45,276 bases of DNA from Bacilli bacterium (GTDB lineage Bacteria; Bacillota_I; Bacilli_A; RF39; UBA660): the NCBI GenBank assembly GCA_028684735.1, contig JAQUFI010000001.1, positions 1-45,276 of the forward strand, read 5' to 3'. Each line of letters starts with the position of its first letter. Position 1 is the first letter of the stretch. Below the pieces are notes generated by a model. The model did not search any database. It was not told where the DNA came from and saw only the letters and a program-made list of their open reading frames with translations. Made by a program: the position numbers and the translations under genes. Of this stretch, positions 2,071 to 38,577 are shown piece by piece.

Positions 2071-2919
2071 TCATCTACCTTTATACTTTAAATATTCATT
2101 ATAAACATCACTCTTTTTAAGATGACGATCTTTACTAACAGCTTTTATTGCATCCATTACTTTATATCCATCAGCAATATACTCTTCAATATGTTCAATA
2201 AGTGTCCAATTGTCATAGTTTTCCCCAGTATTATTACCAGCTACCATTAAAACAATTTCTCCTTTAATGTCAACAATTTGTTCTAAAATGCTTTTGACAC
2301 TCCCTCTAAATACCTCTTCATATTTCTTAGTTATTTCCCGGGAAATACATATTTCCCTATTTCCCATAATATCTAAGACATTTCCCAAAGTTTTCTGAAT
2401 ACGATGAGGAGCCTCATAAAAAATTAAAGTTGCAGTTTCCTTTTCTAAACTTTCTAATTCTTCTTTTCTTTTAGTTTCAGTACTATTTAAAAAACCATAA
2501 AAGAGAAATGGCATTGGTTTAATTCCAGACATCGTTAAAGCTGGAATTAAAGCTGTTGCTCCAGGTAAAGACACCACATTATAACCTTTTTCGATAACAT
2601 ATTTGGCCATTTCATAACCAGGGTCACTTATAATAGGAGTACCTCGATCACTTACTAGTGCGATATCATCACCACTACTTAAATAATTTAGTGCTAACTC
2701 AAGATTCTTTTTCTCATTATGTTCATGATTAGCTATCATTTTTTTCTTAATTTCTAATTTCTTTAATAATAACCCTGTAACCCTAGTATCTTCCGAAAAA
2801 ATTACTTTAACCTCTTTTAAAACATTGATTGCTCTTAAAGTAATATCATCCATATTTCCAATTGGGGTTGGAATTAAATATAAAGTAGGACTATTATCAT
2901 AACTCTTCTGTGACATCAA
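2071..2919 (-). CDS. rsmI: 16S rRNA (cytidine1402-2'-O)-methyltransferase RsmI
   Basis: LYLIPTPIGNMDDITLRAINVLKEV..., tetrapyrrole-methylase fold, typical length (282 aa). Confidence 0.9.
   Translation of the reverse strand: MMSQKSYDNSPTLYLIPTPIGNMDDITLRAINVLKEVKVIFSEDTRVTGLLLKKLEIKKKMIANHEHNEKKNLELALNYLSSGDDIALVSDRGTPIISDPGYEMAKYVIEKGYNVVSLPGATALIPALTMSGIKPMPFLFYGFLNSTETKRKEELESLEKETATLIFYEAPHRIQKTLGNVLDIMGNREICISREITKKYEEVFRGSVKSILEQIVDIKGEIVLMVAGNNTGENYDNWTLIEHIEEYIADGYKVMDAIKAVSKDRHLKKSDVYNEYLKYKGR
2333..2346. promoter_or_regulatory. Perfect Noc-binding-site (NBS) palindrome ATTTCCCGGGAAAT inside rsmI
   Basis: Exact match to the B. subtilis NBS consensus. The 16-bp TATTTCCCGGGAAATA spans 2332-2347. 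Two further ATTTCCC half-sites lie at 2351-2357 and 2359-2365. Confidence 0.6.
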
Positions 2920-8337: not shown

Positions 8338-8781
8338 TTATTTCCTTTTAGTTTTAAAAAAATCACTTAATAATTTTTGAGATTCTTTTTTATATAATCC
8401 CTCTACTATTTCAATATTATAATTATTAATTATTTCTTTTAATATATTATTTGTACTAGAAACAAAACCAAACTTTTCTGAGTTTGTTGCATAAACAATC
8501 TTTTTTATTCTAGATTCTAATATTGCTCCAAAACACATTAAACAAGGTTCTAAAGTTACATACAATATACAGTCATCTAAATGCCAACTTTTTAACTTTT
8601 TACAAGCTTCTTCAATTGCTAAAATTTCTGCGTGATGAGTTGCTGTTTTGTTTTTTTCTTTTTTATTATGTGCTTTAGCTATTACCTTATCATTCTTTAC
8701 AATCACTGCCCCAACCGGTACATCATCTTTTATATAGCTTTTATTAGCTTCTATTAAAGCTAATTTCATATATTTTTCCAT
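8338..8781 (-). CDS. tadA: tRNA-specific adenosine deaminase
   Basis: HAEILAIE and PCLMCFGA deaminase zinc motifs. Probable ATG at 8781 (MEKYMKLAL...). The ORF-track start at 8793 is a TTG. Confidence 0.9.
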   Translation of the reverse strand: MEKYMKLALIEANKSYIKDDVPVGAVIVKNDKVIAKAHNKKEKNKTATHHAEILAIEEACKKLKSWHLDDCILYVTLEPCLMCFGAILESRIKKIVYATNSEKFGFVSSTNNILKEIINNYNIEIVEGLYKKESQKLLSDFFKTKRK

Positions 8782-8799
8782 TATATCACCCAATAATTA

Positions 8800-8877
8800 A
8801 AATAGCACACACATTTAGAGGTTTTTAAGGCTGCTATCTTCCGATTCTGACCTGATTCAAACATAAATGTTGTGCCT
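8800..8877 (-). ncRNA. ffs: Small (4.5S-type) signal recognition particle RNA
   Basis: The minus-strand RNA reads GGCACAACAUUUAUGUUUGAAUCAGGUCAGAAUCGGAAGAUAGCAGCCUUAAAAACCUCUAAAUGUGUGUGCUAUUUU. It carries the domain IV signature CAGGUCAG...C-GGAA-G...AGCAGCC with a GGAA tetraloop closed by AUC/GAU. The 5' GCACAACAUUUA pairs with the 3' UAAAUGUGUGUGC. A U-tract sits at the 3' end. The upstream promoter is TTGATT (8911-8906), 17 nt, TATATT (8888-8883). Confidence 0.75.
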
Positions 8878-8959
8878 TTTATAATATATACCATAATTTA
8901 TAAAAAATCAATTTAAATTAAATTATTGTCCGAGAAATGTTTTTTAAGCATTTTATATA

Positions 8960-8975
8960 TGTTTCACGTGAAACA
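8960..8975. promoter_or_regulatory. parS site 1 (TGTTTCACGTGAAACA, perfect palindrome)
   Basis: Matches the Firmicute parS consensus TGTTNCACGTGAAACA 16/16. With flanks it forms the 18-bp palindrome ATGTTTCACGTGAAACAT. Confidence 0.8.
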
Positions 8976-9010
8976 TAACTTTTAATTTTAATTATATATA
9001 CTATTTTTTA

Positions 9011-9026
9011 TGTTTCACGTGGAACA
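9011..9026. promoter_or_regulatory. parS site 2 (TGTTTCACGTGGAACA)
   Basis: Reverse complement is TGTTCCACGTGAAACA, the classical B. subtilis parS sequence. Confidence 0.8.
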
Positions 9027-9129
9027 TGACTTTGAAATTAATGTTTTTTTGTTTAATTATGATCAATAATATAAGTATAACATTCTATTATGTTGATTAT
9101 TTTTTTAAATTTAAAACATAACATACTAA

Positions 9130-9145
9130 TGTTTCACGTGGAACA
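9130..9145. promoter_or_regulatory. parS site 3 (TGTTTCACGTGGAACA)
   Basis: Identical 18-mer ATGTTTCACGTGGAACAT as site 2. Shares the 3' flank AACTTTTAA with site 1. Confidence 0.8.
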
Positions 9146-9236
9146 TAACTTTTAACTTAAATATTATATAATTATTAATCCATTCATTAAAAAACTACAT
9201 TACATATACAATTTTTGTTTTATATTTTCTAAAAAC

Positions 9237-9250
9237 ATTTCCCGGGAAAT
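9237..9250. promoter_or_regulatory. Perfect Noc-binding-site (NBS) ATTTCCCGGGAAAT within the parS array
   Basis: Exact NBS consensus. The palindrome extends to 24 bp (AAAACATTTCCCGGGAAATGTTTT, 9232-9255). Confidence 0.6.
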
Positions 9251-9285
9251 GTTTTGTGGATGTTTTATATATATTTTACTATTAA

Positions 9286-9301
9286 TGTTTCACGTGGAAC
9301 A
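9286..9301. promoter_or_regulatory. parS site 4 (TGTTTCACGTGGAACA)
   Basis: Same 18-mer as sites 2 and 3, in the same orientation. Confidence 0.8.
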
Positions 9302-9330
9302 TAATACATTAGTTATGGTGTTTAATATGT

Positions 9331-9364
9331 ATTAAAAAAATAATGTTCTAATAGAACATTATTT
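9331..9364 (-). terminator. Rho-independent terminator of gyrA
   Basis: AAATAATGTTCT-AAT-AGAACATTATTT, a 12-bp stem (9338-9364), followed on the minus strand by a T-run. Confidence 0.6.
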
Positions 9365-9385
9365 ATATTAATATGTTATTTTTGA

Positions 9386-9401
9386 TGTTTCACGTGAAAC
9401 A
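9386..9401. promoter_or_regulatory. parS site 5 (TGTTTCACGTGAAACA, perfect palindrome)
   Basis: 16/16 consensus match, located 3 nt downstream of the gyrA stop codon. Confidence 0.8.
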
Positions 9402-9404
9402 TTG

Positions 9405-11852
9405 TTATTGAGATAGTTCTTCTTCAGTAAAGGTTGATTGATCTTCTTTATCAATAATAGCTGTTGTGGATACTTGTTGTTCTTCCTTAAGATTAATTAA
9501 TCTAACCCCTTGAGCTACTCTTCCTGTTGTGGATACTTGCTCCAATGGCAATCTTATGATAATACCGTTGTTTGTAATGATCATTAAATCTTCAATACCG
9601 CTAACAGTTTTAAAAGAAATAATATCACCATTTTTTTCGGTAACATTTAATGCTTTAACCCCTTTGCCGCCGCGATGTGTCTTTCTATATTGTTCTACTG
9701 GTGTTCTTTTCCCATATCCATTTTTTGTTACTACTAATACTTCTTGTCCTTCATTAACAATTTCACATCCTACGCATATAGAATTACCAATATTTACCCC
9801 TTTAACTCCAGAAGCTGTTCTACCCATGATTCTTATTTCAGTTTCATCAAATCTTATCATTCTTCCATCAGAAGTGCCAATAATTATTTCATTATCACCG
9901 GTTGTTTTTTTAACCGAAATTAATTCATCATCATCTTTTAACGAAATAGCTATTTTACCATTGTTTCTGATACTTTCGAATTCACTAACTTTAGTTCGTT
10001 TTACCAATCCTTTTTGTGTACAAAATACAACGTTGCTTACTTCTTCATGTTCGCTTACTTTCAACATTACATTTACTATTTCTCCTTCGTTTAATGGTAG
10101 GAGATTTATAATAGGAATTCCTTTTGATTGCCTGTTAAAAGCTGGAACTTCATAACCTTTAATACGATAAACCTTTCCTCTATTAGTAAAGAATAATAAA
10201 TAATCATGTGTGGTCATAGAAATTATATTTTCAACGAAATCTTCTTCATTTGTAACCATACCTTTAATTCCGACCCCTCCACGATTTTGGGTACGATAAA
10301 TTTCACTATTCATTCTTTTAATATAATCTTTACTTGTAAGAGTTATAACTATTTCCTCGACTGGAATTAACGATTCATCTTCAATATATTCGATAGATGT
10401 CATATCAATAATCGTTTTTCTTTCATCGTTATATTTATTTTTAATTTCTATTAATTCTTCTTTTATAACAGCTAAAATATTTTCTTCATTATACATAATT
10501 TCTAGAAGTTTTTCAATTTCTTTTAATAATTCACTAATTTCTGTTTCGATTTTTCCTTTTTCTAACCCAGTTAATCGACGTAATTTCATTTCAAGAATAG
10601 CTTCTGCTTGAATTTTTGTTAATTCAAACTTTTCTATTAATCCTTTAATAGCTTCATCATCCGTTTTTGATGATCTAATTAATTTAATTACTTCTTCAAT
10701 ATTATCTAAAGCTATTTTCAAACCCTCTAAAATGTGTAATCTATTTTGATTTTTTTCTAAATCAAATTGACAACGACGATAAATAACTTCTTTTTGATGA
10801 TCTAAATATTTTTCTAAAATTGTTTTTAAATCAAGAGTTCTTGGTCTACCATCAACTAACATTAAAAAGTTTATACCATATGATACTTGCAATTGCGTAT
10901 GTTTATATAAATTATTTAAAACCACATTGGCATTTGCTTCTTTTTTTACATCAATTACAATTTTTATACCCTCAAGGGCTGATTCATCATTTAAATTTGA
11001 AATGCCATCAATTACTTTATCTCTAACTAATTCAGCAATTCTAGTAATCAAATTCTTTTTATTAACCTCGTATGGAAGTTCTGTGATTATTATTCTATTT
11101 TTTCCATTTTTTTCTTCGATATCAACTTTTCCTCGAATAGTTATAGTGCCTCTTCCTGTTTCAAAAGCTTTTTTAATACCGCTATTTCCTAAAATTATAC
11201 CAGAAGTAGGAAAATCAGGTCCTTTAATATATTGCATTAACTCTAATATCGTTATATCACGATTATCAATATAAGCTATACAACCATCGATTGCCTCACC
11301 AAGATTATGGGGTGGTATATTTGTTGCCATTCCAACTGCTATTCCCATATTACCATTAACTAAAATGTTTGGGAATCGACATGGTAATACATTAGGTTCT
11401 TTTCTTTGACCATCGTAATTTTCAGAAAAATCTACTGTGTTTTTGTTTAAATCTCTCAAAATCTCCATCGAAATTTTAGATAATTTAGCTTCTGTATAAC
11501 GTGAAGCAGCAGCACCATCACCATCTATTGATCCAAAGTTACCATGGCCATCAACTAAAACATGGCGATAAGTAAAATCTTGTGCCATTCTAACCATTGT
11601 TTCATAAATAGCTGTATCTCCATGGGGATGATAATGCCCCATCACTGCACCCACCGCATTAGCACTCTTTTGGTGTTTTTTATCAGGAGTCATTCCTTCT
11701 TCATACATTGTATATAAAATTCTTCGATGAACAGGTTTTAATCCATCTCGAACATCAGGAATGGCTCTTGAAACAATAACACTCATTGAATAATCTAAAA
11801 ATGATGTTTTCATTTCTGATGTAATATTAACATTTACTATTTTATCTTTCAT
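9405..11852 (-). CDS. gyrA: DNA gyrase subunit A
   Basis: DGLKPVHRRILY, HPHGDTAIYETMVRMAQ, AAASRYTE active-site Tyr region, C-terminal beta-pinwheel repeats. Start taken at MKDKIVNV (11852), which has a GGGGTGA SD. The ORF-track start at 11885 overlaps the gyrB end. Confidence 0.95.
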   Translation of the reverse strand: MKDKIVNVNITSEMKTSFLDYSMSVIVSRAIPDVRDGLKPVHRRILYTMYEEGMTPDKKHQKSANAVGAVMGHYHPHGDTAIYETMVRMAQDFTYRHVLVDGHGNFGSIDGDGAAASRYTEAKLSKISMEILRDLNKNTVDFSENYDGQRKEPNVLPCRFPNILVNGNMGIAVGMATNIPPHNLGEAIDGCIAYIDNRDITILELMQYIKGPDFPTSGIILGNSGIKKAFETGRGTITIRGKVDIEEKNGKNRIIITELPYEVNKKNLITRIAELVRDKVIDGISNLNDESALEGIKIVIDVKKEANANVVLNNLYKHTQLQVSYGINFLMLVDGRPRTLDLKTILEKYLDHQKEVIYRRCQFDLEKNQNRLHILEGLKIALDNIEEVIKLIRSSKTDDEAIKGLIEKFELTKIQAEAILEMKLRRLTGLEKGKIETEISELLKEIEKLLEIMYNEENILAVIKEELIEIKNKYNDERKTIIDMTSIEYIEDESLIPVEEIVITLTSKDYIKRMNSEIYRTQNRGGVGIKGMVTNEEDFVENIISMTTHDYLLFFTNRGKVYRIKGYEVPAFNRQSKGIPIINLLPLNEGEIVNVMLKVSEHEEVSNVVFCTQKGLVKRTKVSEFESIRNNGKIAISLKDDDELISVKKTTGDNEIIIGTSDGRMIRFDETEIRIMGRTASGVKGVNIGNSICVGCEIVNEGQEVLVVTKNGYGKRTPVEQYRKTHRGGKGVKALNVTEKNGDIISFKTVSGIEDLMIITNNGIIIRLPLEQVSTTGRVAQGVRLINLKEEQQVSTTAIIDKEDQSTFTEEELSQ

Positions 11853-11862
11853 TTTATCACCC

Positions 11863-13788
11863 CTATACATCAAGATTCTTAACATTTAATGCATTATCTT
11901 CAATAAATTTTCTTCTTGGTTCAACCTCTTCACCCATTAAGATTTGGAATATTTCATCAGCTGCAATAGCATCATCTAATTCTATTTTAACTAATAATCT
12001 AGTATCAATATGCATTGTAGTTTCTCTTAATTCAATAGCATCCATTTCCCCTAAACCTTTCATACGAGTTATATCGTATTTGGTATTTTCAGGTAACGTA
12101 GAAAGATATTCATCGCGTTCAACTTCATTTAAAACATATTTACTGGTTTTTCCATGACTAATTTTAAATAAAGGTGGTTGAGCTGCATAAATATGACCGG
12201 CTTCCACTAATGGTTTAAAATAACGGTAAAAGAAGGTTAATAATAAAGTCCTAATATGAGCACCATCCACATCAGCATCGGTCATAATAATTATTTTATG
12301 ATATCGTAATTTTGTTATATCAAATTCATCACCAATACCTGTCCCAAAAGCAGTAATAATACTTCTAATTTCTTCGTTACCTAATATTCTATCTAATCTT
12401 GCTTTTTCAACGTTTAGAATTTTACCTCGGATTGGTAAAACTGCTTGCGTTGCTGAATTTCTTCCTTGTTTTGCTGGTCCTGCTGCACTATCCCCTTCAA
12501 CTATAAATATTTCAGAAATAGAAGCATCTTTAGATGAACAATCAGTTAATTTTCCCCATTGATTAGTTAACTCTAAACCACCCTTACGACGAGTTAATTC
12601 ACGTGCTTTTTTAGCTGCTAGTCTGGCACGTGATGCTGTTAATGATTTTTCAATAATTGTTTTAGCTTGATCAGGATTTTCTAATAAAAACCTTTCAAAT
12701 CCATCACTAAATATATCAGATGATATTTTTCTTACTTCACTATTACCCAATTTTGTTTTAGTTTGACCTTCAAATTGCGGATTTGGATGTTTACAAGAAA
12801 TAATCATAGTTAAACCTTCTCTTACATCATCACCAGTTAAAGATTCTTCGTTATCTTTTAAATATTTATGGTTTCTAGCATAATTATTAATAATTCTTGT
12901 TAAAGAATTTTTTACTCCATCTTCATGAGTTCCACCTTCATGAGTATGAATATTGTTTGTAAAAGAATATACATTAGTTGTATAACTTGAATTATATTGA
13001 AAAGCAATTTCTAATGAAATATTGTCTATTTCACTACTAAAATGAACAATATTATTATGAATTGGAGTTTTGTTTTTATTTAGTAATTCAACATAAGCAC
13101 TAATACCACCCTCATAAATAAACTCTTCCTTTTTTAACTCATTAACATCTCTTTCATCACATAAAATAATTTTTAAATTTTTATTTAAAAAAGCTAATTC
13201 TCTTATTCTTGTCCTTAAAATTTCATAATCAAATGTCTGAGTTTCCGTAAATATGCTAGGATCTGGTTTAAATGTAATTGTAGTCCCTGTTCTATCCAAA
13301 GAACAAGTATCTATTATTTCTAATGGTTTGACTGGCTTTCCACCATCTTCAAAACGGATATAATGTACTTTTCCGTCTTGATAGATTGTCGCTTCTAACC
13401 AACTACTAAGCGCATTAACAACACTTCCACCAACCCCGTGAAGACCACCAGAGACTTTATATCCACTTCCTCCAAATTTCCCACCTGCATGTAAGATAGT
13501 AAATACTGTTTCAACCGTCGATAAACCAGTTTTTTTATGGATACCAACTGGTATTCCTCGACCATCATCCCTCACAGTTATTGATTCGTCTTTATTTATA
13601 ATAACTTCTATATCATCACAAAAACCCGCTAGTGCTTCATCAATTGCATTATCTACTATTTCCCAAACTAAATGATGCAAACCTCTAGAACTTGTTGCTC
13701 CTATATACATACCTGGTCTTTTTCTTACTGCTTCTAAGCCTTCTAATACTTGAATATCAGAAGCATCATAATGTGTATCTTTATTCAT
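11863..13788 (-). CDS. gyrB: DNA gyrase subunit B
   Basis: [21 protein letters not shown] ATPase, Toprim EGDSAGG-type (EGDSAAGP), [12 protein letters not shown]-type motif. Confidence 0.96.
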
Positions 13789-15004: not shown

Positions 15005-15040
15005 TTTAAAAAAAGAAAAAATAAGCAATATTGCTTATTT
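15005..15040 (-). terminator. Rho-independent terminator of comK
   Basis: AAATAAGCAA-TAT-TGCTTATTT hairpin (15018-15040) overlapping the stop codon. A T-rich run follows on the minus strand. Confidence 0.6.
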
Positions 15041-15498
15041 TATACTGTTTTTAATTTCATTAATTTAGATTCTAACATAGTTGCTCTATAAATTTGATTT
15101 TCTAATGTAAAAAATGATAAATTTAATTGAATTTCTTTTCCATTTTTAAAAACGATTATACTTTTATTTATATCACTTTTATTTTTATAATAATCTTTAA
15201 TGTTACATAAAGAAACCCAATAACAATTATCGAAACGTGGTGAACTTGTTGGAAAAAAAATTAAATTACTATATTCGCTAATAATTATTGGAGATTTATA
15301 CGTTACTCCGATTAATTTTTTTGTCCCATCTTTTCGACCTAAATATGAACTTCCAAAAAACTTACAACTCTCATCAATTATTTTTGTAGTTGATTTTTTT
15401 ACTAAAAACTGATTATCTTCTTCTATAATTTGTGAAATTTTGTCTGTAACAGGAATTATAACTAATGTTCCTCTATTTATTTCGTAATTATCCCTCAT
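15040..15498 (-). CDS. comK: ComK-family competence transcription factor
   Basis: SCKFFGSSYLGRKDGT, SPIIISEYSNLIFFPTSS and LENQIYRATMLESK align with B. subtilis ComK SCRFFGSSYAGRKAGT, PPIMVDPSNQIFLFPTLS and FENQVYRTAWLRTK (from memory); 152 aa. Confidence 0.8.
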   Translation of the reverse strand: MRDNYEINRGTLVIIPVTDKISQIIEEDNQFLVKKSTTKIIDESCKFFGSSYLGRKDGTKKLIGVTYKSPIIISEYSNLIFFPTSSPRFDNCYWVSLCNIKDYYKNKSDINKSIIVFKNGKEIQLNLSFFTLENQIYRATMLESKLMKLKTV

Positions 15499-16738: not shown

Positions 16739-16876
16739 AAATTCCTCCTTTTAAAAAATCAATTTTTATATTATTTTTTATTAAATATTATTATTATAGA
16801 TGTGGAAATGGTGGAAAACTTTTTACTGCATTATTTACTATCAAAAAATTAAAAATTTATCCTCTTTTTATCCACT
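16739..16876. other. oriC downstream module (dnaA-dnaN spacer): DnaA boxes plus AT-rich candidate unwinding element
   Basis: Tandem boxes TGTGGAAAT (16801-16809) and GGTGGAAAA (16810-16818), and TTATCCACT (16868-16876). About 50 bp of nearly pure A/T lies at 16750-16800, including (ATT)n abutting the boxes. Confidence 0.65.
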
Positions 16877-18227
16877 ATTTTATTTTGTTAATAATTTTTT
16901 CAATTTCATTTTGCAATTGTGAATCTTTTGTTAATTCTTTAGTTATTTTTTCGACTGAATGCATAACTGTAGTATGATCTTTTCCTCCAAATTCACTACC
17001 TATTCTAGCAAAAGGCTCTTCTAAATAAATGCGACAAATATACATTGCGATTTGACGCGGAACACTAATATTGGCTGTTCTTTTTTTACTTTTCAAATCA
17101 TCGACAGTAATATTATAATTATTAGCGATTAATTGTTGTACTTGATCAATTTTATTTTTCGAAATAATGCTTTTTACAAAGTAATCTTTTAATGCTTCAA
17201 TCGCTAAATCTAAAGTTATTTCAGATCCGTTCATGATTGTTGCATAAGCATAAACTCTATTAATAGCTCCCTCTAATTTTCTTATATCGCTAGTACAATT
17301 ACTGGCAATATAATCTCTTATTTCTTTTGGAAAATCAAACATCATTTCATATGCTTCTATTTTATTATCAATAATATTCATTCTCAAATCAAAATCTGGT
17401 GGAAAAATATTAACTGTTAGACCCCAATTAAATCTTGTTCGAAGATTGTCTTCTAATTTTCTTAAATCATCAGGAGAGCGATCAGAAGCAATAATAATTT
17501 GTTTTTTGTTATTGTGTAAATCATTAAAGGTGTTAAAAAACTCTTGTTGAGATGTTGGTGCAATTTCTAAATATTGAATATCATCTATAATTAACACATC
17601 TAAACTACGATATTTTTCTTTAAATTTATCCACAATCATAAAATTATTCTTATTACTTTTATTTTTATATAATTCCACAAAGTCGTTTACAAAATCATCA
17701 CTGGTTATATATAAAACCCTTTTATTACTATTTTCTACAATATAATTACCAATAGCATGCATTAAGTGAGTTTTTCCAAGACCACTATTTCCATATATAA
17801 ATAAAGGATTGTATATTTGACCTGGTTTTTCAGCAACAGCTAAAGCATTATATTTTGCAAATTTATTACTTTCCCCAACAACAAAATTATCAAAGGAATA
17901 TTTAGGATCCAAATTAGAAATATCATTATCTGCGGGAACTCCCATATTATCAGTATCAATAACAATGTTTTGTTCCATTTCTTCTTCTGTGATATATTCA
18001 ATTTTAAAATTTGAACCAGTTATTTCATTAAATAATTTATCAATTAATTCTTGATAATTACTTTTTAAGTGTTTTTTATGAATGGGCATTGGAACTAATA
18101 TTTTTGCATAATTATCATTAATTTCAATTAATTTAGTTTCAGCAAACCAAGCATCATATAATAAAGGTTGTTTTAATTCTTCTTTAATTTTATCTAAAAA
18201 AGAATCCCATATAACTTCAATTTTCAA
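16875..18227 (-). CDS. dnaA: Chromosomal replication initiator DnaA
   Basis: Walker A GNSGLGKTHL, box VII, C-terminal DNA-binding helix GGKDHTTVMHS. TTG start preceded by a GAGGTGG SD. Confidence 0.96.
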   Translation of the reverse strand: MKIEVIWDSFLDKIKEELKQPLLYDAWFAETKLIEINDNYAKILVPMPIHKKHLKSNYQELIDKLFNEITGSNFKIEYITEEEMEQNIVIDTDNMGVPADNDISNLDPKYSFDNFVVGESNKFAKYNALAVAEKPGQIYNPLFIYGNSGLGKTHLMHAIGNYIVENSNKRVLYITSDDFVNDFVELYKNKSNKNNFMIVDKFKEKYRSLDVLIIDDIQYLEIAPTSQQEFFNTFNDLHNNKKQIIIASDRSPDDLRKLEDNLRTRFNWGLTVNIFPPDFDLRMNIIDNKIEAYEMMFDFPKEIRDYIASNCTSDIRKLEGAINRVYAYATIMNGSEITLDLAIEALKDYFVKSIISKNKIDQVQQLIANNYNITVDDLKSKKRTANISVPRQIAMYICRIYLEEPFARIGSEFGGKDHTTVMHSVEKITKELTKDSQLQNEIEKIINKIK

Positions 18228-25196: not shown

Positions 25197-25274
25197 AGAG
25201 GGCTTTTTTTATAATAAACAAAAATTGGGAAATACTATTATATATTAAAGAAATGAATTATTTCCCAAAAAGTA

Positions 25275-25303
25275 TTGAATTATTTCCCAAGATATAGTAT
25301 TAT
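25275..25303 (+). promoter_or_regulatory. Candidate sigma-A promoter of the noc-like gene
   Basis: TTGAAT (25275-25280), 17 nt, TATTAT (25298-25303). The spacer contains ATTTCCCAA. Confidence 0.5.
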
Positions 25304-25326: not shown

Positions 25327-26994
25327 TTGTGTAGTGTGGATATTGAAAAAAAGATAACGGAATTAAATCTTGCTGATATCTTACCTAATCGCTTTCAACC
25401 AAGGATTAAATTTGGTGAAGATGCGATTAATGAATTGTCGGAATCAATCAAAGAACATGGAGTAATTCAACCAATTGTTGTTAGAGCAATTGGTGATAAA
25501 TATGAAATCATAGCTGGTGAAAGAAGATATAAAGCCAGTGTTTTAGCAGGAAGAAATACAATACCTGCTATTGTTACGGATTTAAATGATAAAGATAGTG
25601 CTGAAGTGGCTTTAATTGAAAATGTTCAAAGACAAGATTTAACACCAATTGAAGAAGCAATATCATATAAAAAAATTATTGATATGGGATTTACTCAAGA
25701 GCAATTAGCAAGCAAATTAGGAAATAAGCAATCGACGATAGCTAATAAGTTACGATTATTGAATTTAAATGAAGATGTTCAAGAAGCTTTATTAGAAGGA
25801 AAAATATCAGAAAGACATGCAAGATCAATTTTAAGACTTAACAGTCAACAACAAACAGAAATATTAAACAAAGTATTATCTGAAAGGTTAACGGTAAGAA
25901 AAACTGATCAAGAAATAGACAAATTATTAAATGAAAAAAGTGTTGATACGTCAATTGATAATGTGGAGTTTTTAGATGTTAGTTTATTTAATCAAAAGAA
26001 AGAAGAAGAACCTTCTTCGGTAACTATTGATTCTATTTTAGGAATAGAACCAATGGAAGAAAGGGTTAGCCCAATGAATAATGAAAATGAACAAACAACT
26101 TTAGGAATTTTTAATAATTCTATTCAATTCCCAAGTGGACCAATCCTTAATGAAGCAATTAAAACGCCAATTAATATACCTAGTAATCCGATTCAAGATG
26201 AAGAAACCCCAAATATTCCTAATTTTGAGGTAGAAATTCCTGTTGATGGGGTTAATCCAGGCTTCATGAATATTGAAAAAATTGAAACAGAAGCACAAAA
26301 TATAAATGAAGATAAACCATTAGCTGATGTGAATTTGTTATTACAACCAGAACCATTTAAAAATAATCAAGATGGTTATGATTTTAACCTATCACAATCA
26401 GAAAACACATCTCATGAACCACGTTTTTTTAATAATTTTAAAGAAGAAAATAATATCGAACCAATAAATAATTTTAATTTTTCTATTGAGGAACCAAAAA
26501 CAAATGAAATAAATAATAATCTTGTAATGGAACAACCAATTGAATCTGAAAAACCATTGGAAACAGAAATATTTCCACAACCAGAAATAACTACAGAAGC
26601 ACCATTGGAATCGTTTACACCAACAGTCCCAATTGTAAAGTCACAACCAGAAGTATTTCCACCAACCGCACCAATTGTTGAATCACAACCAGAACCAATA
26701 AACCCTATAACATTTGATATTCCAATGGAAAATAATATAACTAGTGATAATCAAATAAGTAATGAACCTACCAATAACTTTGATTTTAATATCGAACCAA
26801 TAAATAATATAAATTCTAATATTGGCCAACCAGTTATGTCAGAAACATTTTACCAAGGTGAAAAAACATTAAAGGCAGCTATTGATATTATTAGAAAATG
26901 TGAATCAAGAATCAAAGATATAGGATTTGAGGTCGAAATTGAAGAAATAGACTTTGAAGATATATATCAAGTAATATTTAAAATAAATAAGTAA
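25327..26994 (+). CDS. noc: ParB-family protein of the Noc (nucleoid occlusion) type with a ~300-aa low-complexity insertion
   Basis: ILPNRFQPR, IIAGERRYKAS (CTP-binding GERR box), HTH QSTIANKLRLLNL...ISERHARSIL, and C-terminal IKDIGFEVEIEEIDFEDIYQVIFKINK resemble B. subtilis Noc (from memory) more than Spo0J. Position directly after rsmG. The start is TTG at 25327 or GTG at 25336. An in-frame TGA at 25309-25311 blocks any upstream extension. Confidence 0.8.
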   Translation: MCSVDIEKKITELNLADILPNRFQPRIKFGEDAINELSESIKEHGVIQPIVVRAIGDKYEIIAGERRYKASVLAGRNTIPAIVTDLNDKDSAEVALIENVQRQDLTPIEEAISYKKIIDMGFTQEQLASKLGNKQSTIANKLRLLNLNEDVQEALLEGKISERHARSILRLNSQQQTEILNKVLSERLTVRKTDQEIDKLLNEKSVDTSIDNVEFLDVSLFNQKKEEEPSSVTIDSILGIEPMEERVSPMNNENEQTTLGIFNNSIQFPSGPILNEAIKTPINIPSNPIQDEETPNIPNFEVEIPVDGVNPGFMNIEKIETEAQNINEDKPLADVNLLLQPEPFKNNQDGYDFNLSQSENTSHEPRFFNNFKEENNIEPINNFNFSIEEPKTNEINNNLVMEQPIESEKPLETEIFPQPEITTEAPLESFTPTVPIVKSQPEVFPPTAPIVESQPEPINPITFDIPMENNITSDNQISNEPTNNFDFNIEPINNINSNIGQPVMSETFYQGEKTLKAAIDIIRKCESRIKDIGFEVEIEEIDFEDIYQVIFKINK

Positions 26995-27012
26995 GCAAGG
27001 CTTACTTTTTAT
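26989..27012 (+). terminator. Rho-independent terminator of noc
   Basis: AAGTAAGC-AAG-GCTTACTT followed by TTT, overlapping the stop codon. Confidence 0.6.
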
Positions 27013-27293
27013 TTGCTTATAAGAAAAAAATCCTTTAAATAAGATTAAAATAAAATATTAGATAATTTGGATGACTTTAAGGGAATGAAGAAATATTAAT
27101 AAATATCGAATTAACTTTAGAAAATGGGAAAAATATTATATTCAAGAGAGCGAACTAAGCAATTTTTTATCCGTAATTGATTTTGATAATTTATTTTTTG
27201 TGATTAATTAAAAGAGTAAATATTTTTATTAAGTAAACGAGTAATGATTTACTTTTTATATGGTATAATCATTACAACAAGGAGGGGAAGTTG

Positions 27294-29249
27294 ATGTTTA
27301 AATTAGTATCAAAATATAAACCTAGTGGTGATCAACCTGAGGCTATTGAAAAATTAACTAAAGGTATTTTTGATGGAACCAAATATCAAGTTCTTTTAGG
27401 TGCAACTGGAACTGGTAAAACTTTTACGATTGCTAATGTAATTGAAAAAATTCAAAAACCAACCCTTGTTTTGGCTCATAATAAAACTCTTGCTGGTCAA
27501 CTATATAGTGAGTTAAAGGAATTATTTCCAGAAAATAAAGTAGAATATTTTGTATCTTATTATGATTATTATCAACCTGAAGCTTATGTAGCTAAAACAG
27601 ATACATATATTGAAAAAGATGCCTCTATTAATGATGAAATAGATGAACTTCGTCATGCTGCAACCTCAGCTTTATTAAATAATCGAGATGTTATTGTCGT
27701 AGCTTCAGTATCATGTATTTATGGTATTGGTGATATCGATGAATACCGAAAAAAAATGTTAGTAATTAATGAAAATGACCAATATGAACCAAAAGATATT
27801 ATGGAAAAACTAATTGAGATGTTTTATGAGCGTAATCTCTTAGATTTAAAAAGAGGTAGTTTTCGTAGTAGGGGTGATGTCCTAGAAATTATCCCAGCTA
27901 ATCAACATGGAAAAGGAATAAGAATAGAATTTTTTGGAGATGTTGTTGAAAAGATAAGTGAATTTGATACTTTGACAGGAGTAATAATAAATAATAAAAA
28001 AAGTGTAACTCTTTTTCCGGCTAGTCATTTTGTGACTAGTGAAGAAAAAATTAAATTAGCAATTGCTAATATAAGAACAGAATTAGAAGAACAATTACAG
28101 TATTTTAAAAGTCAAAATAAATTATTAGAATACCAAAGATTAAATGAAAGAACTAATTATGATATAGAAATGTTAGCAGAAACTGGATCATGCCGAGGAG
28201 TAGAAAATTATTCTCGTCATTTAGCATTAAAAAAACCTGGTGAAACTCCAACAACTTTGATGGACTTTTTTGGTGACGATTTTCTTTTGGTAGTTGATGA
28301 ATCTCATGTTACTATTCCTCAGGTTAGAGGAATGTATAATGGTGATCAAGCTCGTAAATCAGTCTTAGTAGAGTATGGTTTTAGATTGCCTAGCGCTAAG
28401 GATAATCGACCATTAAAATTTGAAGAATTTGAATCGAAAATTAATCAAGTTATCTTTGTTTCAGCAATTCCAGGTAATTATGAATTAGAGAAAACAAATA
28501 ATGAAATTGTTGAGCAAATTATTAGGCCAACAGGGTTGTTAGATCCAATTATTGAAGTTAGAGATACAACTAATCAAATTGATAATTTAATTGAAGAAAT
28601 TAATAAACAAATTACTAAAAGTCAAAGAACTTTAATAACTACTTTAACGATTAGAATGTCAGAAGAATTAACGACTTATCTTAAAAACATAAATATTAAA
28701 GTCGCATATCTTCATAGTGAAGTAAAAACCTTAGAACGATTAAAAATTATTAGAGATTTAAGATTAGGTAAATATGATGTCTTAGTTGGAATAAATTTAC
28801 TAAGAGAAGGTTTAGATATCCCTGAAGTTAGTTTAATTGTGATTATGGATGCTAATAAACAAGGTTTTTTAAGAAGTGATAAAAGTTTAATTCAAACGAT
28901 AGGAAGAGCAGCTCGAAATGAAGAAGGTCGTGTTATTATGTATGCTGATACAATTAGTGATTCCATGAAAGTAGCGATTAATGAAACCAATCGTCGTCGA
29001 AATATTCAAGAGCAATTTAATCAAGAACATAATATTATACCCAAAACAATTATTAAAGAAATTAGAGATGTTATTAGTAACAATAAAGAAGAAGTAGAAG
29101 AAAAAGAAATAAAGATGTCAAAACAAGATAAACATAAACTTATGATTAAAATTGAAAAGGCGATGAGAGAAGCTGCTAAGGAATTAGATTTTGAAAGAGC
29201 AACAGAATTAAGAGATATTTTATTTGAATTGAAAAGTGGAGATAATTAA
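27294..29249 (+). CDS. uvrB: Excinuclease ABC subunit B
   Basis: [14 protein letters not shown], Walker [13 protein letters not shown] box, C-terminal UVR domain ([18 protein letters not shown]). ATG at 27294, 8 nt after GGAGG; a TTG at 27291 is also possible. An extended -10 TGGTATAAT lies at 27261-27269. Confidence 0.95.
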
Positions 29250-29345
29250 AATTTTACATATAATGTACTATCTACACTAAACAGTTGTATTTTTAATGTT
29301 AAAAGATATGAAAATATGTTATAATATTGCAAGGAGATGATGAAA

Positions 29346-29780
29346 ATGAAAGTAATCATAATCGATGAAAAGAGTAGTATTAATAAAGTAAGATTAAATC
29401 GTTTTATTGATTGGTTAATAAATATGGTTGGTTATGCTTTAGTTTTAATTACAGTATCAGTGTTGTTTCCTAAAACTATTCAAATAGATAATTCATATTT
29501 TGGTTTGTGGGGATTACTGGCTGCTGTTGTTATTTATATTTTAAATAAAACAGTTAAACCGATTCTTGTTTTTTTCACTTTACCAATAACAGGATTAACT
29601 TTAGGACTATTTTATCCTTTTATAAATGTAATTATCTTAAATATTGTTGATTTTATTTTAGGTGATTATTTTACTATTAATGGAATTTTTATGTCGTTTA
29701 TTGTGGCTGTCTTTATTTCAATTATGAATATATTAATGGATAAATTAGTCATTCAACCTATTTTAAGAAGGGGACGATAA
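29346..29780 (+). CDS. DUF360 / phage-holin-4-like (YvlD family) membrane protein
   Basis: Four predicted TM segments; PILVFFTLPITGLTLGLF motif. Start ambiguous: ATGs at 29337, 29340 and 29346. 29346 has the best spacing from AAGGAG. Confidence 0.7.
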   Translation: MKVIIIDEKSSINKVRLNRFIDWLINMVGYALVLITVSVLFPKTIQIDNSYFGLWGLLAAVVIYILNKTVKPILVFFTLPITGLTLGLFYPFINVIILNIVDFILGDYFTINGIFMSFIVAVFISIMNILMDKLVIQPILRRGR

Positions 29781-29781
29781 A

Positions 29782-30594
29782 ATGCACGGAGTTATATTAG
29801 ATTTAGGAATTATTCAAATATATTGGTACTCTTTAATTTTATTTATGGCTTTTTTAATTGGAGGGTCAATTACTCTTTATGAAGCCAAAAGATTCAATGT
29901 TCCTGAAAATTTTATGATCAATTTGTTTTTCTTTTTAATTCCTATTAGTATCATTGGTGCTAGATTATATTATGTAGTTTTTAATTGGAGTTACTATAGT
30001 GAAAATTTAATTGATATTCTAAAAATATGGGAAGGTGGTCTAGCTATTCATGGTGGATTAATTTTCGGATTACTTTGGATAATCTTTTATTCAAAACGCT
30101 ATAAAGTTAGAACCCTTAGAATATTAGATTTTATTTCTATCGGTTTGATTTTAGGTCAATCAATTGGAAGATGGGGTAATTTCTTTAATAAAGAGGCTCA
30201 TGGTCCAGAAATAGCTTTAGAAACCTTACAAAAAATTTTTCCTGATTTTATTGTTGAAGGAATGAATATTGGTGGAATTTATTATCACCCTACTTTCTTA
30301 TATGAATCCATCTGGTGTTTCTTAGGATTTATCTTTTTAATTATTATGAGAAAATATAAATACCTTAAGATTGGTCATCTGAGTAGTTTATATTTAATTT
30401 GGTATGGGATTGGAAGATTTGTGATTGAATGGCTTAGAACAGATAGTCTAATGATTGGAGATTTTAAAATAGCTGTTTTTGTATCATTCTTTATGGTTAT
30501 TGCTGGTTTTGTAATGATGGTTTTACTTAATAGAGGATCACGTTTTCAAAATCAATACAATGAAATGGGAGATATAAATGAAATTAAATTTTGA
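29782..30594 (+). CDS. lgt: Prolipoprotein diacylglyceryl transferase
   Basis: WYSLILFMAF..., HGGLIFG, GRWGNFFNKEAHG signature. Confidence 0.93.
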   Translation: MHGVILDLGIIQIYWYSLILFMAFLIGGSITLYEAKRFNVPENFMINLFFFLIPISIIGARLYYVVFNWSYYSENLIDILKIWEGGLAIHGGLIFGLLWIIFYSKRYKVRTLRILDFISIGLILGQSIGRWGNFFNKEAHGPEIALETLQKIFPDFIVEGMNIGGIYYHPTFLYESIWCFLGFIFLIIMRKYKYLKIGHLSSLYLIWYGIGRFVIEWLRTDSLMIGDFKIAVFVSFFMVIAGFVMMVLLNRGSRFQNQYNEMGDINEIKF

Positions 30595-31477
30595 TTGTGT
30601 CATTATTGGAGCTGGTATTGCTGGGATAACAGCAGCTATTTATTTAAAAAGATCGAATGTTAATGTTTTATTACTTGATAAAGGAGCGCCAGGAGGTCAA
30701 TTAAATGGTATTAGTAAAATAGATAATTATCCAGGTTTCTCATCGATTAGTGGACCTGATTTAGCGAGTAGTCTTTTTGAACAAATGAATAATTTAAATA
30801 TTGAATACCGTTATGGAAATGTTATCGATGTTGAAAATAATGAAGATTATAAAGTTGTAACGACTGAAATAGAAAGAATTTATACTCAAGCAGTTATTAT
30901 AGCAACTGGTCGTCAACCCAAAAAATTGGGTATTAAAAAAGAAGATGAATTAGTAAGTCGTGGGATTAGTTATTGTGCTCTTTGTGATGGAATGTTTTTT
31001 AAAGATAAAATAGTAGCAACGATTGGTAGTGAACATGGTGCCTTAACAGAAGCTCTATATCTAGCAGATATCTGTAAAGAAGTAATTATGATTAATCCTA
31101 AGGATGTTTTTGCAGGAGAAGAAGACCTAATCAATAAAATTAATAATAAACCAAATATTCGTATTATTTATAATAGTCAGGTCACACAATTTAATAGTAA
31201 AAACGATGTTTTAGATTCAATTGTTATTAACGATAAAGATAAAATAGAGGTCTCAGGGGTTTTTATTTACACAGGACTCGAACCAACTAATGATTTTTTA
31301 AAAAAGTTACCTATTAAACTTGAAAAGCAATATATTGTTGTAGATGATAAGATGAAAACAAGTATTGATAATATCTATGCTTGTGGTGATATTGTCAAGA
31401 AAAGTGTCTACCAATTAACGACCGCTGTGAGTGATGGAGCCATTGCTGCTGTTAATGTAAAGAAAAATTTAAAATAA
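30578..31477 (+). CDS. Thioredoxin-reductase-like flavoprotein lacking NADPH-binding motifs (FFTR-like?)
   Basis: FAD motif IIGAGIAGITAA, redox CALCDG, C-terminal ACGD. Where TrxB has GGGxxA and HRRxxxR, this protein reads IGSEHGA and INPKDVFAG. Confidence 0.75.
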   Translation: MKLNFDCVIIGAGIAGITAAIYLKRSNVNVLLLDKGAPGGQLNGISKIDNYPGFSSISGPDLASSLFEQMNNLNIEYRYGNVIDVENNEDYKVVTTEIERIYTQAVIIATGRQPKKLGIKKEDELVSRGISYCALCDGMFFKDKIVATIGSEHGALTEALYLADICKEVIMINPKDVFAGEEDLINKINNKPNIRIIYNSQVTQFNSKNDVLDSIVINDKDKIEVSGVFIYTGLEPTNDFLKKLPIKLEKQYIVVDDKMKTSIDNIYACGDIVKKSVYQLTTAVSDGAIAAVNVKKNLK

Positions 31478-31493
31478 TGTCAACTTAATTTTT

Positions 31494-31520
31494 AATACTC
31501 AATTTAATGAGTATTTTTTT
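31494..31520 (+). terminator. Rho-independent terminator after trxB-like gene
   Basis: AATACTCA-ATTTAA-TGAGTATT followed by TTTTT. Confidence 0.65.
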
Positions 31521-31571
31521 ATTTCGGTATAAAAATTAAATAATATATAGTATAATTAAAGGGGTGATAGG

Positions 31572-32522
31572 ATGCAAAAAAAAGTTGTTGTTCTTGGTGG
31601 AGGAACCGGATTATCTTTTTTACTTCGTGGTTTAAAAGAATATCCGCTAAATATTTCAGCGATTGTAGCTGTAAGCGATGATGGTCAAAGTTCAGGGAGA
31701 TTAAGGGAAGAATTTAATACACCAGCCGTTGGTGATGTTAGAAGAGTGCTGATTTCATTGGCGGAAACGGAACCATTATTTGAGGAATTATTTAATTACC
31801 GATTTAAAACAACTAGTGATTTAAACGGTCATACTGTTGGTAACTTATTATTAACAGCTATGAAAAATATAACAGGTAATATGTCTGATGGTATTGAATC
31901 ATTAGGAAAAGTATTAAATTTAAAAGGAAAAGTACTACCTTTAACTGAAGATAATGTTGTCTTAATGGGTAAAATGGAAGATGGTAGCATAATTGAAGGA
32001 GAACATAATATTACATCATCTAATAAGGGGATTAAAGAAGTCTATTATAAAGAAAAACCAATTGTTAACCCAGAAGCAATTAATGCTGTTAGAGAAGCAG
32101 ATTTAATTATTCTAAGTATGGGAAGTGTTTTCACAAGCATTATTCCAACTTTATTATGTAAAGAATTAATTAAAGAAATAGATAATAGTAAGGCTCCTAT
32201 TTTATATACCTGTAATATGATGACTCAACCAGGAGAGACAGATAATTGTAATGCTAGCCATCATATTAAAATATTAAATAAATATTTAGGAAAACGAAAA
32301 ATCGATATAATAATTGCTAATAATGGTGAAATTAATCAAGAATTAATTAGTAAATATGAAACATTAGAACAAAAAGACCAAGTTTTATATGATGAAGAAA
32401 ATCTGAAGAAGATGAATATCCAAACAATTGCTGATAATTTTGTTTTGATTGAAGATGATATGATTAGACATGATCGCATAAAACTATCATTTTATATCTA
32501 TTCAGTTTTAATAAGAGGTTAA
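31572..32522 (+). CDS. yvcK: Gluconeogenesis factor YvcK (CofD-like)
   Basis: VVLGGGTGLS N-terminus, 316 aa, followed by whiA as in Bacillus. Confidence 0.9.
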   Translation: MQKKVVVLGGGTGLSFLLRGLKEYPLNISAIVAVSDDGQSSGRLREEFNTPAVGDVRRVLISLAETEPLFEELFNYRFKTTSDLNGHTVGNLLLTAMKNITGNMSDGIESLGKVLNLKGKVLPLTEDNVVLMGKMEDGSIIEGEHNITSSNKGIKEVYYKEKPIVNPEAINAVREADLIILSMGSVFTSIIPTLLCKELIKEIDNSKAPILYTCNMMTQPGETDNCNASHHIKILNKYLGKRKIDIIIANNGEINQELISKYETLEQKDQVLYDEENLKKMNIQTIADNFVLIEDDMIRHDRIKLSFYIYSVLIRG

Positions 32523-32523
32523 A

Positions 32524-33453
32524 ATGTCATTTACAAGTATTGTTAAAAGTGAAGTTAGTAAAGTAGAGTTATTTGGAAGTGAAAACATATCCGAATTATC
32601 AGCTATTATTCGTAATAGTAATTATCAAGAAAATAGTATTAAAATAACAACTGAAAATGCAAGTGTAGCTCGACATATTTACTCATTGATTAAAGATGTT
32701 TATGATATAAGTCCTATTATAACGGCACGAAAAGGGTATAATTATCAAAAAAAGTTTATTTATATTGTTGAAATCAAACAAAAGAAAGCAATCATTTTAA
32801 GTGATCTATGTATCGATAATGGTGATTTAAATAATGTTCCTAAAGATTATTTAGTAGCTGATGAAGAATTGAAAAGGGCTTATATCAAAGGTGTCTTTCT
32901 AATTACTGGAAGTGTTAATGATCCTAAAAAATCACGATATCATTTAGAATTTATTGTTGATAATGAGAAATATGCTAATTTTATTTCTGACTTATTAAAT
33001 ACTTTTGATTTAAATAGTAAAGTTTTGAAAAGAGAAAGTAAATTTATGGTTTATATAAAAGAAGCTGAAAAAATAGGGGATTTTTTAAGATTGATTAAAG
33101 CTAGTAATGCGGTCTTATATTATGAGGATATTAGAATTTATCGTGATCATAAAAATATGACTAATCGTCTAAATAATTGTGAACAGGCTAATATCGATAA
33201 AATGATTGAAGCAGCTACGAAACAAGTCAATGATATTCAAACCATTATAGATGTAGTTGGAATTGATTTACTTGATGAAAAAGAGCAAGTTGTAGCTACT
33301 TATCGGTTAAAATATCCAGAGGCTTCACTACAAGAACTTAGTGAGATTATTACAATTGAAACAGGAAAAGCAATTACTAAATCAGGAATTAATCATCGAA
33401 TAAGAAAAATTGAGAAAATTGCTAATCGTATAAGAACAAATGAGAAAAAATAA
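32524..33453 (+). CDS. whiA: Sporulation/cell-division regulator WhiA
   Basis: MSFTSIVKSEV..., LAGLIDADG-like degenerate core, C-terminal HTH (KSGINHRIRKI). Confidence 0.9.
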   Translation: MSFTSIVKSEVSKVELFGSENISELSAIIRNSNYQENSIKITTENASVARHIYSLIKDVYDISPIITARKGYNYQKKFIYIVEIKQKKAIILSDLCIDNGDLNNVPKDYLVADEELKRAYIKGVFLITGSVNDPKKSRYHLEFIVDNEKYANFISDLLNTFDLNSKVLKRESKFMVYIKEAEKIGDFLRLIKASNAVLYYEDIRIYRDHKNMTNRLNNCEQANIDKMIEAATKQVNDIQTIIDVVGIDLLDEKEQVVATYRLKYPEASLQELSEIITIETGKAITKSGINHRIRKIEKIANRIRTNEKK

Positions 33454-33475
33454 TATTTTCTCATTTTCTTTTTTA
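33439..33475 (+). terminator. Rho-independent terminator of whiA
   Basis: AATGAGAAAA-N7-TTTTCTCATT, a 10-bp stem followed by a T-rich tract. Confidence 0.65.
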
Positions 33476-33541
33476 TAATATAGGACATATCCCCCTTTTT
33501 ATAGTATAATAATGTTGTAATTATTTATATAGAGGTGATTT

Positions 33542-38043: not shown

Positions 38044-38577
38044 ATGATATTTATGAGAAAGTCGATACTATTTATTTTAGGAATGCTGATGATTTATTTA
38101 TTATTAGGTAATATATACACAAATAAGATTGTCATCCCTGATGAGGCAATTCGACTTAGAGTAATACCTCATAGTAATAATAAAAACGATCAAATGATTA
38201 AACAACAAGTATCGATATTATTACAAGATGAGATGTATCATTTGCTTAAAAATACAACGAAAATTGAAGAAGCTCGAAGTATTATTAATAATAATTTAGA
38301 TAAACTTGATATGTCAATTAACAACCTCTTAACAAATAAAAAGTATCCTTATGGGTATCAAGTTAATTTTGGATATAATTACTTTCCTGAGAAGGAATAC
38401 AATGATATTATCTATAATGAAGGTTACTATGAATCCTTATTAGTAACCTTAGGAAATGGTTCAGGGGATAATTGGTGGTGTGTTCTTTTTCCACCATTAT
38501 GTTTATTAGAAGGAACAGAAAGCAATACCATTGAATATAAATTTTTTATTAAAGAAATAATCGATAAATATTTTTAG
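38044..38577 (+). CDS. spoIIR: Stage II sporulation protein R
   Basis: IRLRVIPHSNNKNDQMIKQQV and GDNWWCVLFPPLC are SpoIIR signatures. N-terminal signal/TM segment. Confidence 0.8.
   Translation: MIFMRKSILFILGMLMIYLLLGNIYTNKIVIPDEAIRLRVIPHSNNKNDQMIKQQVSILLQDEMYHLLKNTTKIEEARSIINNNLDKLDMSINNLLTNKKYPYGYQVNFGYNYFPEKEYNDIIYNEGYYESLLVTLGNGSGDNWWCVLFPPLCLLEGTESNTIEYKFFIKEIIDKYF

Follow-up and report, generated by a model that had tools for sequence, protein, structure and literature searches.

ParB and Noc are textbook paralogous DNA clamps that depend on cytidine triphosphate (CTP), with binding sites, parS and the Noc-binding site (NBS), that have diverged by two bases per half-site, and the two proteins are normally described at separate chromosomal places. 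In Bacillus subtilis the parS sites are dispersed over hundreds of kilobases, and F sopC consists of 12 tandem 43-bp repeats. The element considered here is a 24-bp palindrome, AAAACATTTCCCGGGAAATGTTTT, at positions 9232–9255 of a 45,276-nt window (the whole stretch of DNA that was analyzed), which has a GC content of 26.6% and represents the replication-origin region of a metagenome-assembled Bacilli genome. The palindrome lies within a cluster of parS sites and is probably an NBS, the first DNA contact of the CTP-dependent Noc-type protein that is encoded at 25336–26994 of the same window, with loading proposed by analogy to B. subtilis.

After binding to the NBS and to CTP, Noc of B. subtilis closes into a clamp and spreads (PMC8429893), and its N-terminal amphipathic membrane helix, comprising approximately the first 15 residues, is highly conserved and needed for function in that organism (PMC4331003, PMC8429893). 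The two types of site are parS, TGTTTCAC-GTGAAACA, and NBS, TATTTCCC-GGGAAATA, and the choice between them is made by residues 173, 179, 184 and 201, which are QKKR in Noc and RTAG in ParB, with Q173 selecting A1 and R201 selecting C6, and with a single lysine at 179 or 184 being enough in a Caulobacter ParB scaffold (PMC7383237). In Staphylococcus aureus, which has ParB but no ParA, the core of the NBS consensus is identical to the 14-mer at the center of the palindrome, and Noc covers 8–10 kb around each site (PMC5540599). Additionally, Spo0J and Noc of B. subtilis cooperate to block Z-ring assembly over the nucleoid (PMC6852036).

An NBS Consensus Between Two parS Sites

The palindrome is perfect, with 12 + 12 nucleotides and no spacer, as was described in an initial annotation made from the letters of the window and reproduced by an exact inverted-repeat check. 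Its central 14 bp (9237–9250, ATTTCCCGGGAAAT) match the NBS consensus at 14 of 14 positions. The consensus sequences of parS and NBS given in that annotation, as well as the difference of two positions per half-site, agree with the published sites (PMC7383237). Both half-sites of the palindrome read CATTTCCC and so carry the two bases, A1 and C6, that discriminate NBS from parS. A perfect 16-mer NBS differs from parS at 4 of 16 positions, two discriminating positions falling in each half-site, and the palindrome is absent from the parS matches of the window at up to three mismatches.

The identification as an NBS is exact for the 14-mer and less complete at 16 bp, where the form at 9236–9251 (CATTTCCCGGGAAATG) matches at 14 of 16 positions, the outermost pair being C/G and not T/A. 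The only perfect 16-mer of the window (TATTTCCCGGGAAATA, 2332–2347, 16 of 16 positions) is a second NBS inside the coding sequence of rsmI (minus strand), where it is translated as the codons ATT TCC CGG GAA ATA (I-S-R-E-I). The exact 14-mer is found twice in the window, at 2333–2346 and 9237–9250, against ∼8e-5 exact matches per window expected from base composition. With up to two mismatches allowed, shuffled sequences gave a mean of 0.28 matches, and at least two matches were reached in 3 of 100 shuffles. The hexamer CCCGGG also occurs only twice in the window, each time within the 14-mer.

Five parS sites surround the palindrome: parS-1 (8960–8975, TGTTTCACGTGAAACA) is perfect, parS-2 (9011–9026, TGTTTCACGTGGAACA), parS-3 (9130–9145) and parS-4 (9286–9301) each have one mismatch, and parS-5 (9386–9401), located 4 bp beyond the stop codon of gyrA, is again perfect. 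These coordinates place the palindrome between parS-3 and parS-4, with 36 bp from the end of the NBS core to the start of parS-4, in agreement with the position annotated initially. A decayed NBS (8920–8943), which matches the palindrome at 19 of 24 positions, lies just before parS-1, and together with the DNA that follows, it repeats in direct orientation, though in degenerate form, the unit of NBS, spacer and parS at 9232–9279. The window thus has two such units, one intact and one eroded.

The NBS in Related Genomes

A GyrA scan of species-representative genomes yielded 80 loci from related uncultured Bacilli with 61–75% GyrA identity, and motifs were counted in 82 non-redundant sequences totalling 1.40 Mb of origin-proximal DNA, namely these 80 loci, the window and a related noc locus. 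The 14-mer of the NBS is present in 100 copies distributed over 47 of the 82 sequences, with the full 16-mer in 96 of the 100; all 139 control palindromes of equal half-site base composition have zero copies in the same sequences. Nearly every CCCGGG in the lineage (100 of 106) falls inside the 14-mer, and no hybrid or chimeric parS-NBS sites were found in this set. Locus L001, obtained through a RecR look-up, is the same region as the window from another assembly, identical over 641 aligned bases, and is therefore uninformative on conservation.

Approximately half of the lineage's NBS copies lie outside the parS arrays that are described below. Some of them are intragenic, with 11 in rsmI, 4 in a methyltransferase gene and others in dnaX, ybaB and recF. 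On the other side of oriC, one NBS copy is present in ∼86 kb around noc, and the 45-kb window holds 2 copies.

The copy within rsmI is informative with regard to selection. Of 16 species having the ISREI peptide in RsmI, 11 encode it with the same five codons as the window, and the RsmI proteins of ISREI species are 47–65% identical to that of the window. CGG makes up 0.7% of arginine codons and TCC 2.3% of serine codons in the window, and on this codon usage the probability of the codon set is 2.3e-5. As rare codons have been kept in 11 of 16 species despite the divergence of RsmI, the rsmI NBS is under selection at the level of DNA and not of protein. Three further ATTTCCC half-sites, at 2351, 2359 and 2380, are located within 55 bp of the rsmI NBS (2332–2386), and one ATTTCCC ∼10–20 bp downstream is kept in all 11 of the species that retain the rsmI NBS. 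Compared with control 7-mers, the ATTTCCC + AA half-site shows only a mild excess.

The Noc-Type Protein

The presumed reader of the NBS is a protein of 552 amino acids (aa) encoded at 25336–26994 (plus strand), directly after rsmG, by the sole ParB-family gene in the window. The open reading frame (ORF) had initially been annotated as 25327–26994; its ParB-family, Noc-like nature holds, whereas its start is more probably the GTG at 25336 than the TTG at 25327, given an AAAGGGG ribosome-binding site and the same start in the database copy. The product matches PF02195 (the ParB N-terminal, CTP-binding domain, 1.2e-32) and PF17762 (a helix-turn-helix domain, 1.5e-31), and the aligned orthologs all retain the GERRY and ENVQR motifs unchanged. 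Its best family match is TIGR04285 nucleoid_noc, with 275.7 bits over profile positions 1–199, compared with 167 bits for a generic ParB model, and the C-terminal 47 aa alone match only the end of the TIGR04285 profile, at positions 213–255 (16.6 bits, E = 0.004). The best matches among solved structures are Geobacillus Noc 7NG0 and 7NFU (E ∼1e-56), above Spo0J.

The four specificity residues are Q173, K179, N184 and R201 (QKNR), and not the R-x-x-G of ParB type. The 120 closest database relatives comprise 94 with QKNR, 10 with QKKR and 16 with QTNR, and none with a ParB-type set. A search of the available portion of the deep-mutational-scanning supplement of the work on these positions (PMC7383237) did not turn up the combination QKNR itself.

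A hypervariable, proline- and acid-rich disordered linker of 250–400 aa across orthologs (∼300 aa in the window) separates the DNA-binding region from a short C-terminal domain. AlphaFold predicts residues 1–204 and 508–552 with confidence and residues 205–507 as disordered, save for a conserved island at residues ∼303–340, within which NPGFMNIEKIE..A.DI..EKP.AD...LL occupies residues ∼306–337. A second island of the linker, PGKFFN (RFFNNF in the window), has F364 and F365 invariant in 36 orthologs of the window's clade. This island resembles the R-F-F of Noc's N-terminal membrane helix; the sister clade has DYF.xPDL in its place, and AlphaFold confidence there is low. That the island represents a relocated membrane helix is a weak lead.

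Upstream of the gene (25227–25296), a direct repeat of two copies of TGAATTATTTCCCAA carries the half-site TATTTCCC, and GGGAAATA is present 24 bp upstream. The spacer of a promoter-like TTGAAT-N17-TATTAT contains the proximal half-site, and five relatives whose Noc proteins are only 42–58% identical to that of the window share the stretch TATTTCCCA without change. This region may be an autoregulatory operator.

Association With parS and Its Interpretation

Most of the loci (67 of 81) have at least two parS sites directly after gyrA. An NBS is located within 150 bp of a parS in 22 of these 67 arrays and in one further locus with a single parS. Overall, 47 of 98 NBS copies are this close to a parS, where 3.8 would be expected under a uniform spread; since many arrays are tandem repeats, the number of independent events is below 47. 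When GyrA is clustered at ≥80% identity, arrays with both types of site are found in 13 of 41 clusters; at 75% the figure is 11 of 24. In several loci parS and NBS together form the tandem unit, with 5.6 copies of 126 bp in L071, 3.7 copies of 126 bp in L059 and 2.2 copies of 106 bp in L074, and in L004 the two sites alternate irregularly. The centre-to-centre spacing between NBS and parS ranges from 21 to ∼100 bp among species.

One GyrA clade (L005, L010, L012 and L014–L016) has 7–9 parS sites and no NBS in the available sequence, which amounts to up to 22 kb per locus. The parS sites of this clade are perfect in 4 of the 6 loci, and in the remaining two loci most of them have one mismatch. 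Only four of its loci reach rsmI, where L012, L014 and L016 have ATT GT(C/T) CGG GAA ATA, which holds a half-site only, and L015 has ATT GTA AGA GAA ATA. Tight tandem parS arrays, with periods of ∼37–39, ∼54 or 74 bp and 7–11 copies, are present in L005, L010, L019, L013, L048 and L025. The contigs of several relatives stop inside the post-gyrA array, a few hundred bases past gyrA, which suggests that the parS/NBS repeats break metagenome assemblies, a point of practical relevance.

The consensus match, the Q-K-N-R reader, the enrichment in the lineage and the recurrent pairing with parS all agree with the interpretation of the palindrome as an NBS at the level of sequence comparison. If the protein encoded at 25336–26994 behaves as Noc does in B. 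subtilis, it would bind CTP at the NBS, close as a clamp and slide to neighbouring DNA. Noc-type and ParB clamps would then load tens of base pairs apart and share the same origin-proximal DNA, so that the origin region would be marked by both proteins at once, with ParB serving condensation and segregation and Noc serving division occlusion, DNA tethering or replication control. Binding to the site, clamp loading and functional coupling to ParB are steps that we infer. The coupling could take the form of joint origin marking for division control, as with Spo0J and Noc of B. subtilis (PMC6852036), of control over replication initiation, as in S. aureus (PMC5540599), or of sliding clamps that confine each other.

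Several observations weigh against this interpretation. At the palindrome itself the outermost pair of the 16-bp site is C/G, and T/A is found there in 96 of 100 lineage sites. The protein shares 3 of 4 specificity positions with Noc, having N instead of K at 184, and its 275.7 bits do not reach the TIGR04285 cutoff of 315 bits. It also cannot carry the N-terminal amphipathic helix of Noc, because an in-frame stop lies 6 codons before its first possible start; its alignment to the Noc structures begins at chain residue 27–28, and all 16 aligned orthologs begin ∼6–8 residues ahead of the conserved ParB N-terminal stretch. Classical membrane-tethered occlusion is accordingly not to be assumed for a Noc-like protein without the known membrane helix of Noc, and the downstream function may differ from classical nucleoid occlusion. 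Interleaving is common and not obligatory, with 45 of 67 parS arrays having no NBS. Lastly, no second ParB-family or Soj gene was detected by tblastn in the window or the 80 gyrA loci, and there is no soj or parB beside noc in the relatives of the window's clade L082, L085, L087 and L089.

A further step, which can be proposed only tentatively and which we would hold as somewhat less than an even prospect, is that the arrays are composite centromeres, in which parS and NBS alternate next to oriC and are loaded by ParB and by a remodelled Noc, helix-less and with a long disordered linker, the two acting as one origin-marking complex. Noc might then, for example, tether the ParB-bound origin or set the bounds of ParB spreading, instead of serving solely as a nucleoid-occlusion factor at dispersed sites.

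A reading that competes with this accepts the NBS as real and regards its place among the parS sites as functionless, both kinds of site having gathered in the longest interval without genes close to the origin and tandem duplication having produced the alternation. The arrays without an internal NBS would be in keeping with such a coincidence, as would the clade with 7–9 parS sites and no NBS, the location of about half of the NBS copies elsewhere, many of them within genes, and the recent origin of the arrays in L071, L059 and L074, whose repeats match at 87–96% and make many of the 47 pairs dependent on one another. Composite arrays nevertheless recur in 13 of 41 or 11 of 24 GyrA clusters, depending on the identity level, and the variation in spacing together with species-specific unit lengths argues for repeated independent juxtaposition. 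An NBS has no need of a gene-free refuge, because it tolerates coding sequence (rsmI, the methyltransferase gene, dnaX and ybaB), and the window has kept a decayed second unit of NBS, spacer and parS. Coincidental co-location is on balance unlikely but a serious alternative, and the one that deserves the most weight.

Readers of parS

The initial annotation had left two explanations for the co-location, namely two clamps, ParB and Noc, that load and slide on the same DNA, or one protein that reads both sites. Two clamps are favored. In L082, L085, L087 and L089 noc follows rsmG on its own, but in a metagenome scan more distant low-GC relatives were found with a long-linker, helix-less Noc followed by soj and a canonical 300-aa ParB (RTSG). 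A ParB search with this metagenome RTSG ParB led to two contigs that are also present in the gyrA set. The first four noc loci had shown no same-species overlap with the gyrA loci, the best being 83% identical. L038 and L170 do overlap, by 3130 identical bases, and are therefore one contig of 91,580 bp. This contig encodes rsmG, a long-linker Noc-like protein (QKAR), soj and a canonical ParB (RTNG), and downstream of gyrA it has an NBS 77 bp from a parS as well as two further NBS copies. Two distinct readers and both types of site thus coexist in one relative.

The gene content between noc and rplI also differs among the relatives. In L170 and L173 this interval contains soj, parB, DUF951, abgT, ychF, rpsF, ssb and rpsR, with an additional mscS-type channel gene after parB in L170. 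In the window's clade it contains uvrB, a holin-like gene, lgt, a trxB-like gene, a cofD-like gene and whiA (26995–33500). A rearrangement has thus taken soj and parB out of the origin locus in this clade. As the missing block includes rpsF, ssb and rpsR, which are taken as essential genes, the block containing soj and parB was more likely relocated than lost. A ParB gene in the window's own genome is what the intact parS sites imply and what the missing block suggests.

The alternative, that the 25336–26994 protein reads parS as well as NBS and that the window's clade has no separate ParB, is very unlikely. It would account for the fact that neither a second ParB nor Soj was detected in the window, at any of the 80 gyrA loci or beside noc in the four relatives named above, and 82 tested ParB variants bind both sites (PMC7383237). 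However, Q173 and R201 are present in every ortholog, parS-specific variants have an invariant R173, and the loading of B. subtilis Noc is strictly NBS-dependent (PMC7383237, PMC8429893). The site classes are discrete, with no hybrid in 1.4 Mb, and relatives that share the long-linker type of Noc have Soj and a distinct canonical ParB (RTNG or RTSG). The soj-parB block, too, would more likely have moved than been lost.

Other Explanations for the Palindrome

CCCGGG is typical of type II restriction sites, and the palindrome is located upstream of a signal recognition particle (SRP) RNA gene and tadA, so an unrelated factor, either a restriction-modification system that recognizes CCCGGG or a transcription factor for the SRP-RNA and tadA genes, could be considered. 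A 6-bp recognition site is insufficient as an explanation, because CCCGGG is embedded in the full 14-mer in 100 of 106 cases and in the identical 16-mer in 96, and a local operator would not be expected to recur, as this 16-mer does, within a number of unrelated genes in different species. The window ORFs that were scanned, which were a part of the total, yielded no domain of a restriction enzyme or methylase, and the motif matches the site used by a protein family that has a member encoded in the window. An unrelated factor is consequently highly improbable. Chance, or an RNA hairpin such as a gyrA terminator, can be dismissed: the minus-strand RNA downstream of gyrA does form a 10-bp stem (−7.8 kcal/mol, z-score −2.1), but this stem is weak and AU-rich, and the conservation of the 16-mer across species, coding sequence included, rules out both chance and a purely local RNA role. 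A terminator scan of 8700–9500 found no terminator-like site, and an intrinsic terminator was rejected on this ground and on that of the −7.8 kcal/mol hairpin.

Gene Order Around the Origin

The parS/NBS cluster is ∼8 kb from dnaA (16875–18227, minus strand), between gyrA and the SRP-RNA and tadA genes. On the minus strand there follow dnaN, a ComK-family gene, recF, gyrB and gyrA (9405–11885). The ComK-family gene (15040–15498, minus strand; PF06338, 1.1e-44) lies between dnaN and recF, and a ComK gene adjacent to dnaN is also present in the relatives L082, L085 and L089. Directly past gyrA is a non-coding stretch of 611 bp (8794–9404), and beyond it are tadA, dnaX, ybaB, recR, holB, a PSP1-domain gene, the methyltransferase gene, rsmI (2071–2919, minus strand) and pth. 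The gene for a small bacterial SRP RNA (8792–8884, minus strand; RF00169, 61 bits) separates the parS/NBS cluster from tadA, and in the relative L004 parS and NBS sites are present on both flanks of the corresponding SRP-RNA-like sequence. On the plus strand the order is rnpA, yidC, jag, mnmE, mnmG, rsmG, the ParB-family gene and uvrB.

The window also encodes SpoIIR (38044–38577), which is sporulation-associated, and locus L001 has BofA and SpoVT, both sporulation-associated as well. On account of these genes the window's small-genome gut lineage is probably spore-forming.

Novelty and Significance

The NBS and Noc themselves are already known. No description was found, in the literature searched, of a recurrent and sometimes strictly alternating pairing of NBS and parS in a post-gyrA array, nor of a widespread helix-less Noc-type protein with a long disordered linker. 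With NBS and parS 21–100 bp apart beside the origin, these loci represent a natural test of whether the two clamps share DNA, and the interleaving bears equally on whether they block each other's sliding and cooperate in the handling of the origin. A Noc-type protein that has NBS specificity residues and no membrane helix is also relevant to how Noc acts outside the model organisms.

Comparison With Known Systems

The closest resemblance is to the Noc-NBS systems of B. subtilis and S. aureus, with which the window shares an identical 14-bp core and the relatives an identical 16-bp site. Like Noc, the protein has a ParB N-terminal CTP-binding domain, a helix-turn-helix with Q173, K179 and R201, and a Noc-like C-terminal domain, and as in the Noc system its gene lies directly after rsmG and its sites are both genic and intergenic near the origin. 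The window's clade further resembles S. aureus in having no soj/parB beside noc. Unlike Noc, the protein of the window's lineage is without an N-terminal amphipathic membrane helix, has a disordered linker of 250–400 aa between its DNA-binding and C-terminal domains, has N184 and not K, and scores below the TIGR04285 cutoff, and unlike in the Noc system the NBS copies of the lineage are concentrated in the parS array and alternate with its sites.

The ParB-parS (Spo0J) system is represented by the neighbouring sites, which fit the 16-bp parS consensus near oriC, and by the canonical ParB (RTNG or RTSG) and Soj that relatives encode, whereas the palindrome itself differs from parS at 4 of 16 positions. 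The parS sites of the lineage are tightly clustered or arrayed in tandem immediately past gyrA, unlike those of B. subtilis. In this respect the lineage arrays are like F sopC, with tandem, regularly spaced ParB-family sites, but they are chromosomal and have two types of site per repeat unit for two paralogous readers. Unlike in B. subtilis, where no such interleaving was found to be described in the literature searched, the NBS and parS sites of the lineage are 21–100 bp apart. The cooperation of Spo0J and Noc in that organism nonetheless offers a functional precedent for paralogs that act jointly on the control of division.

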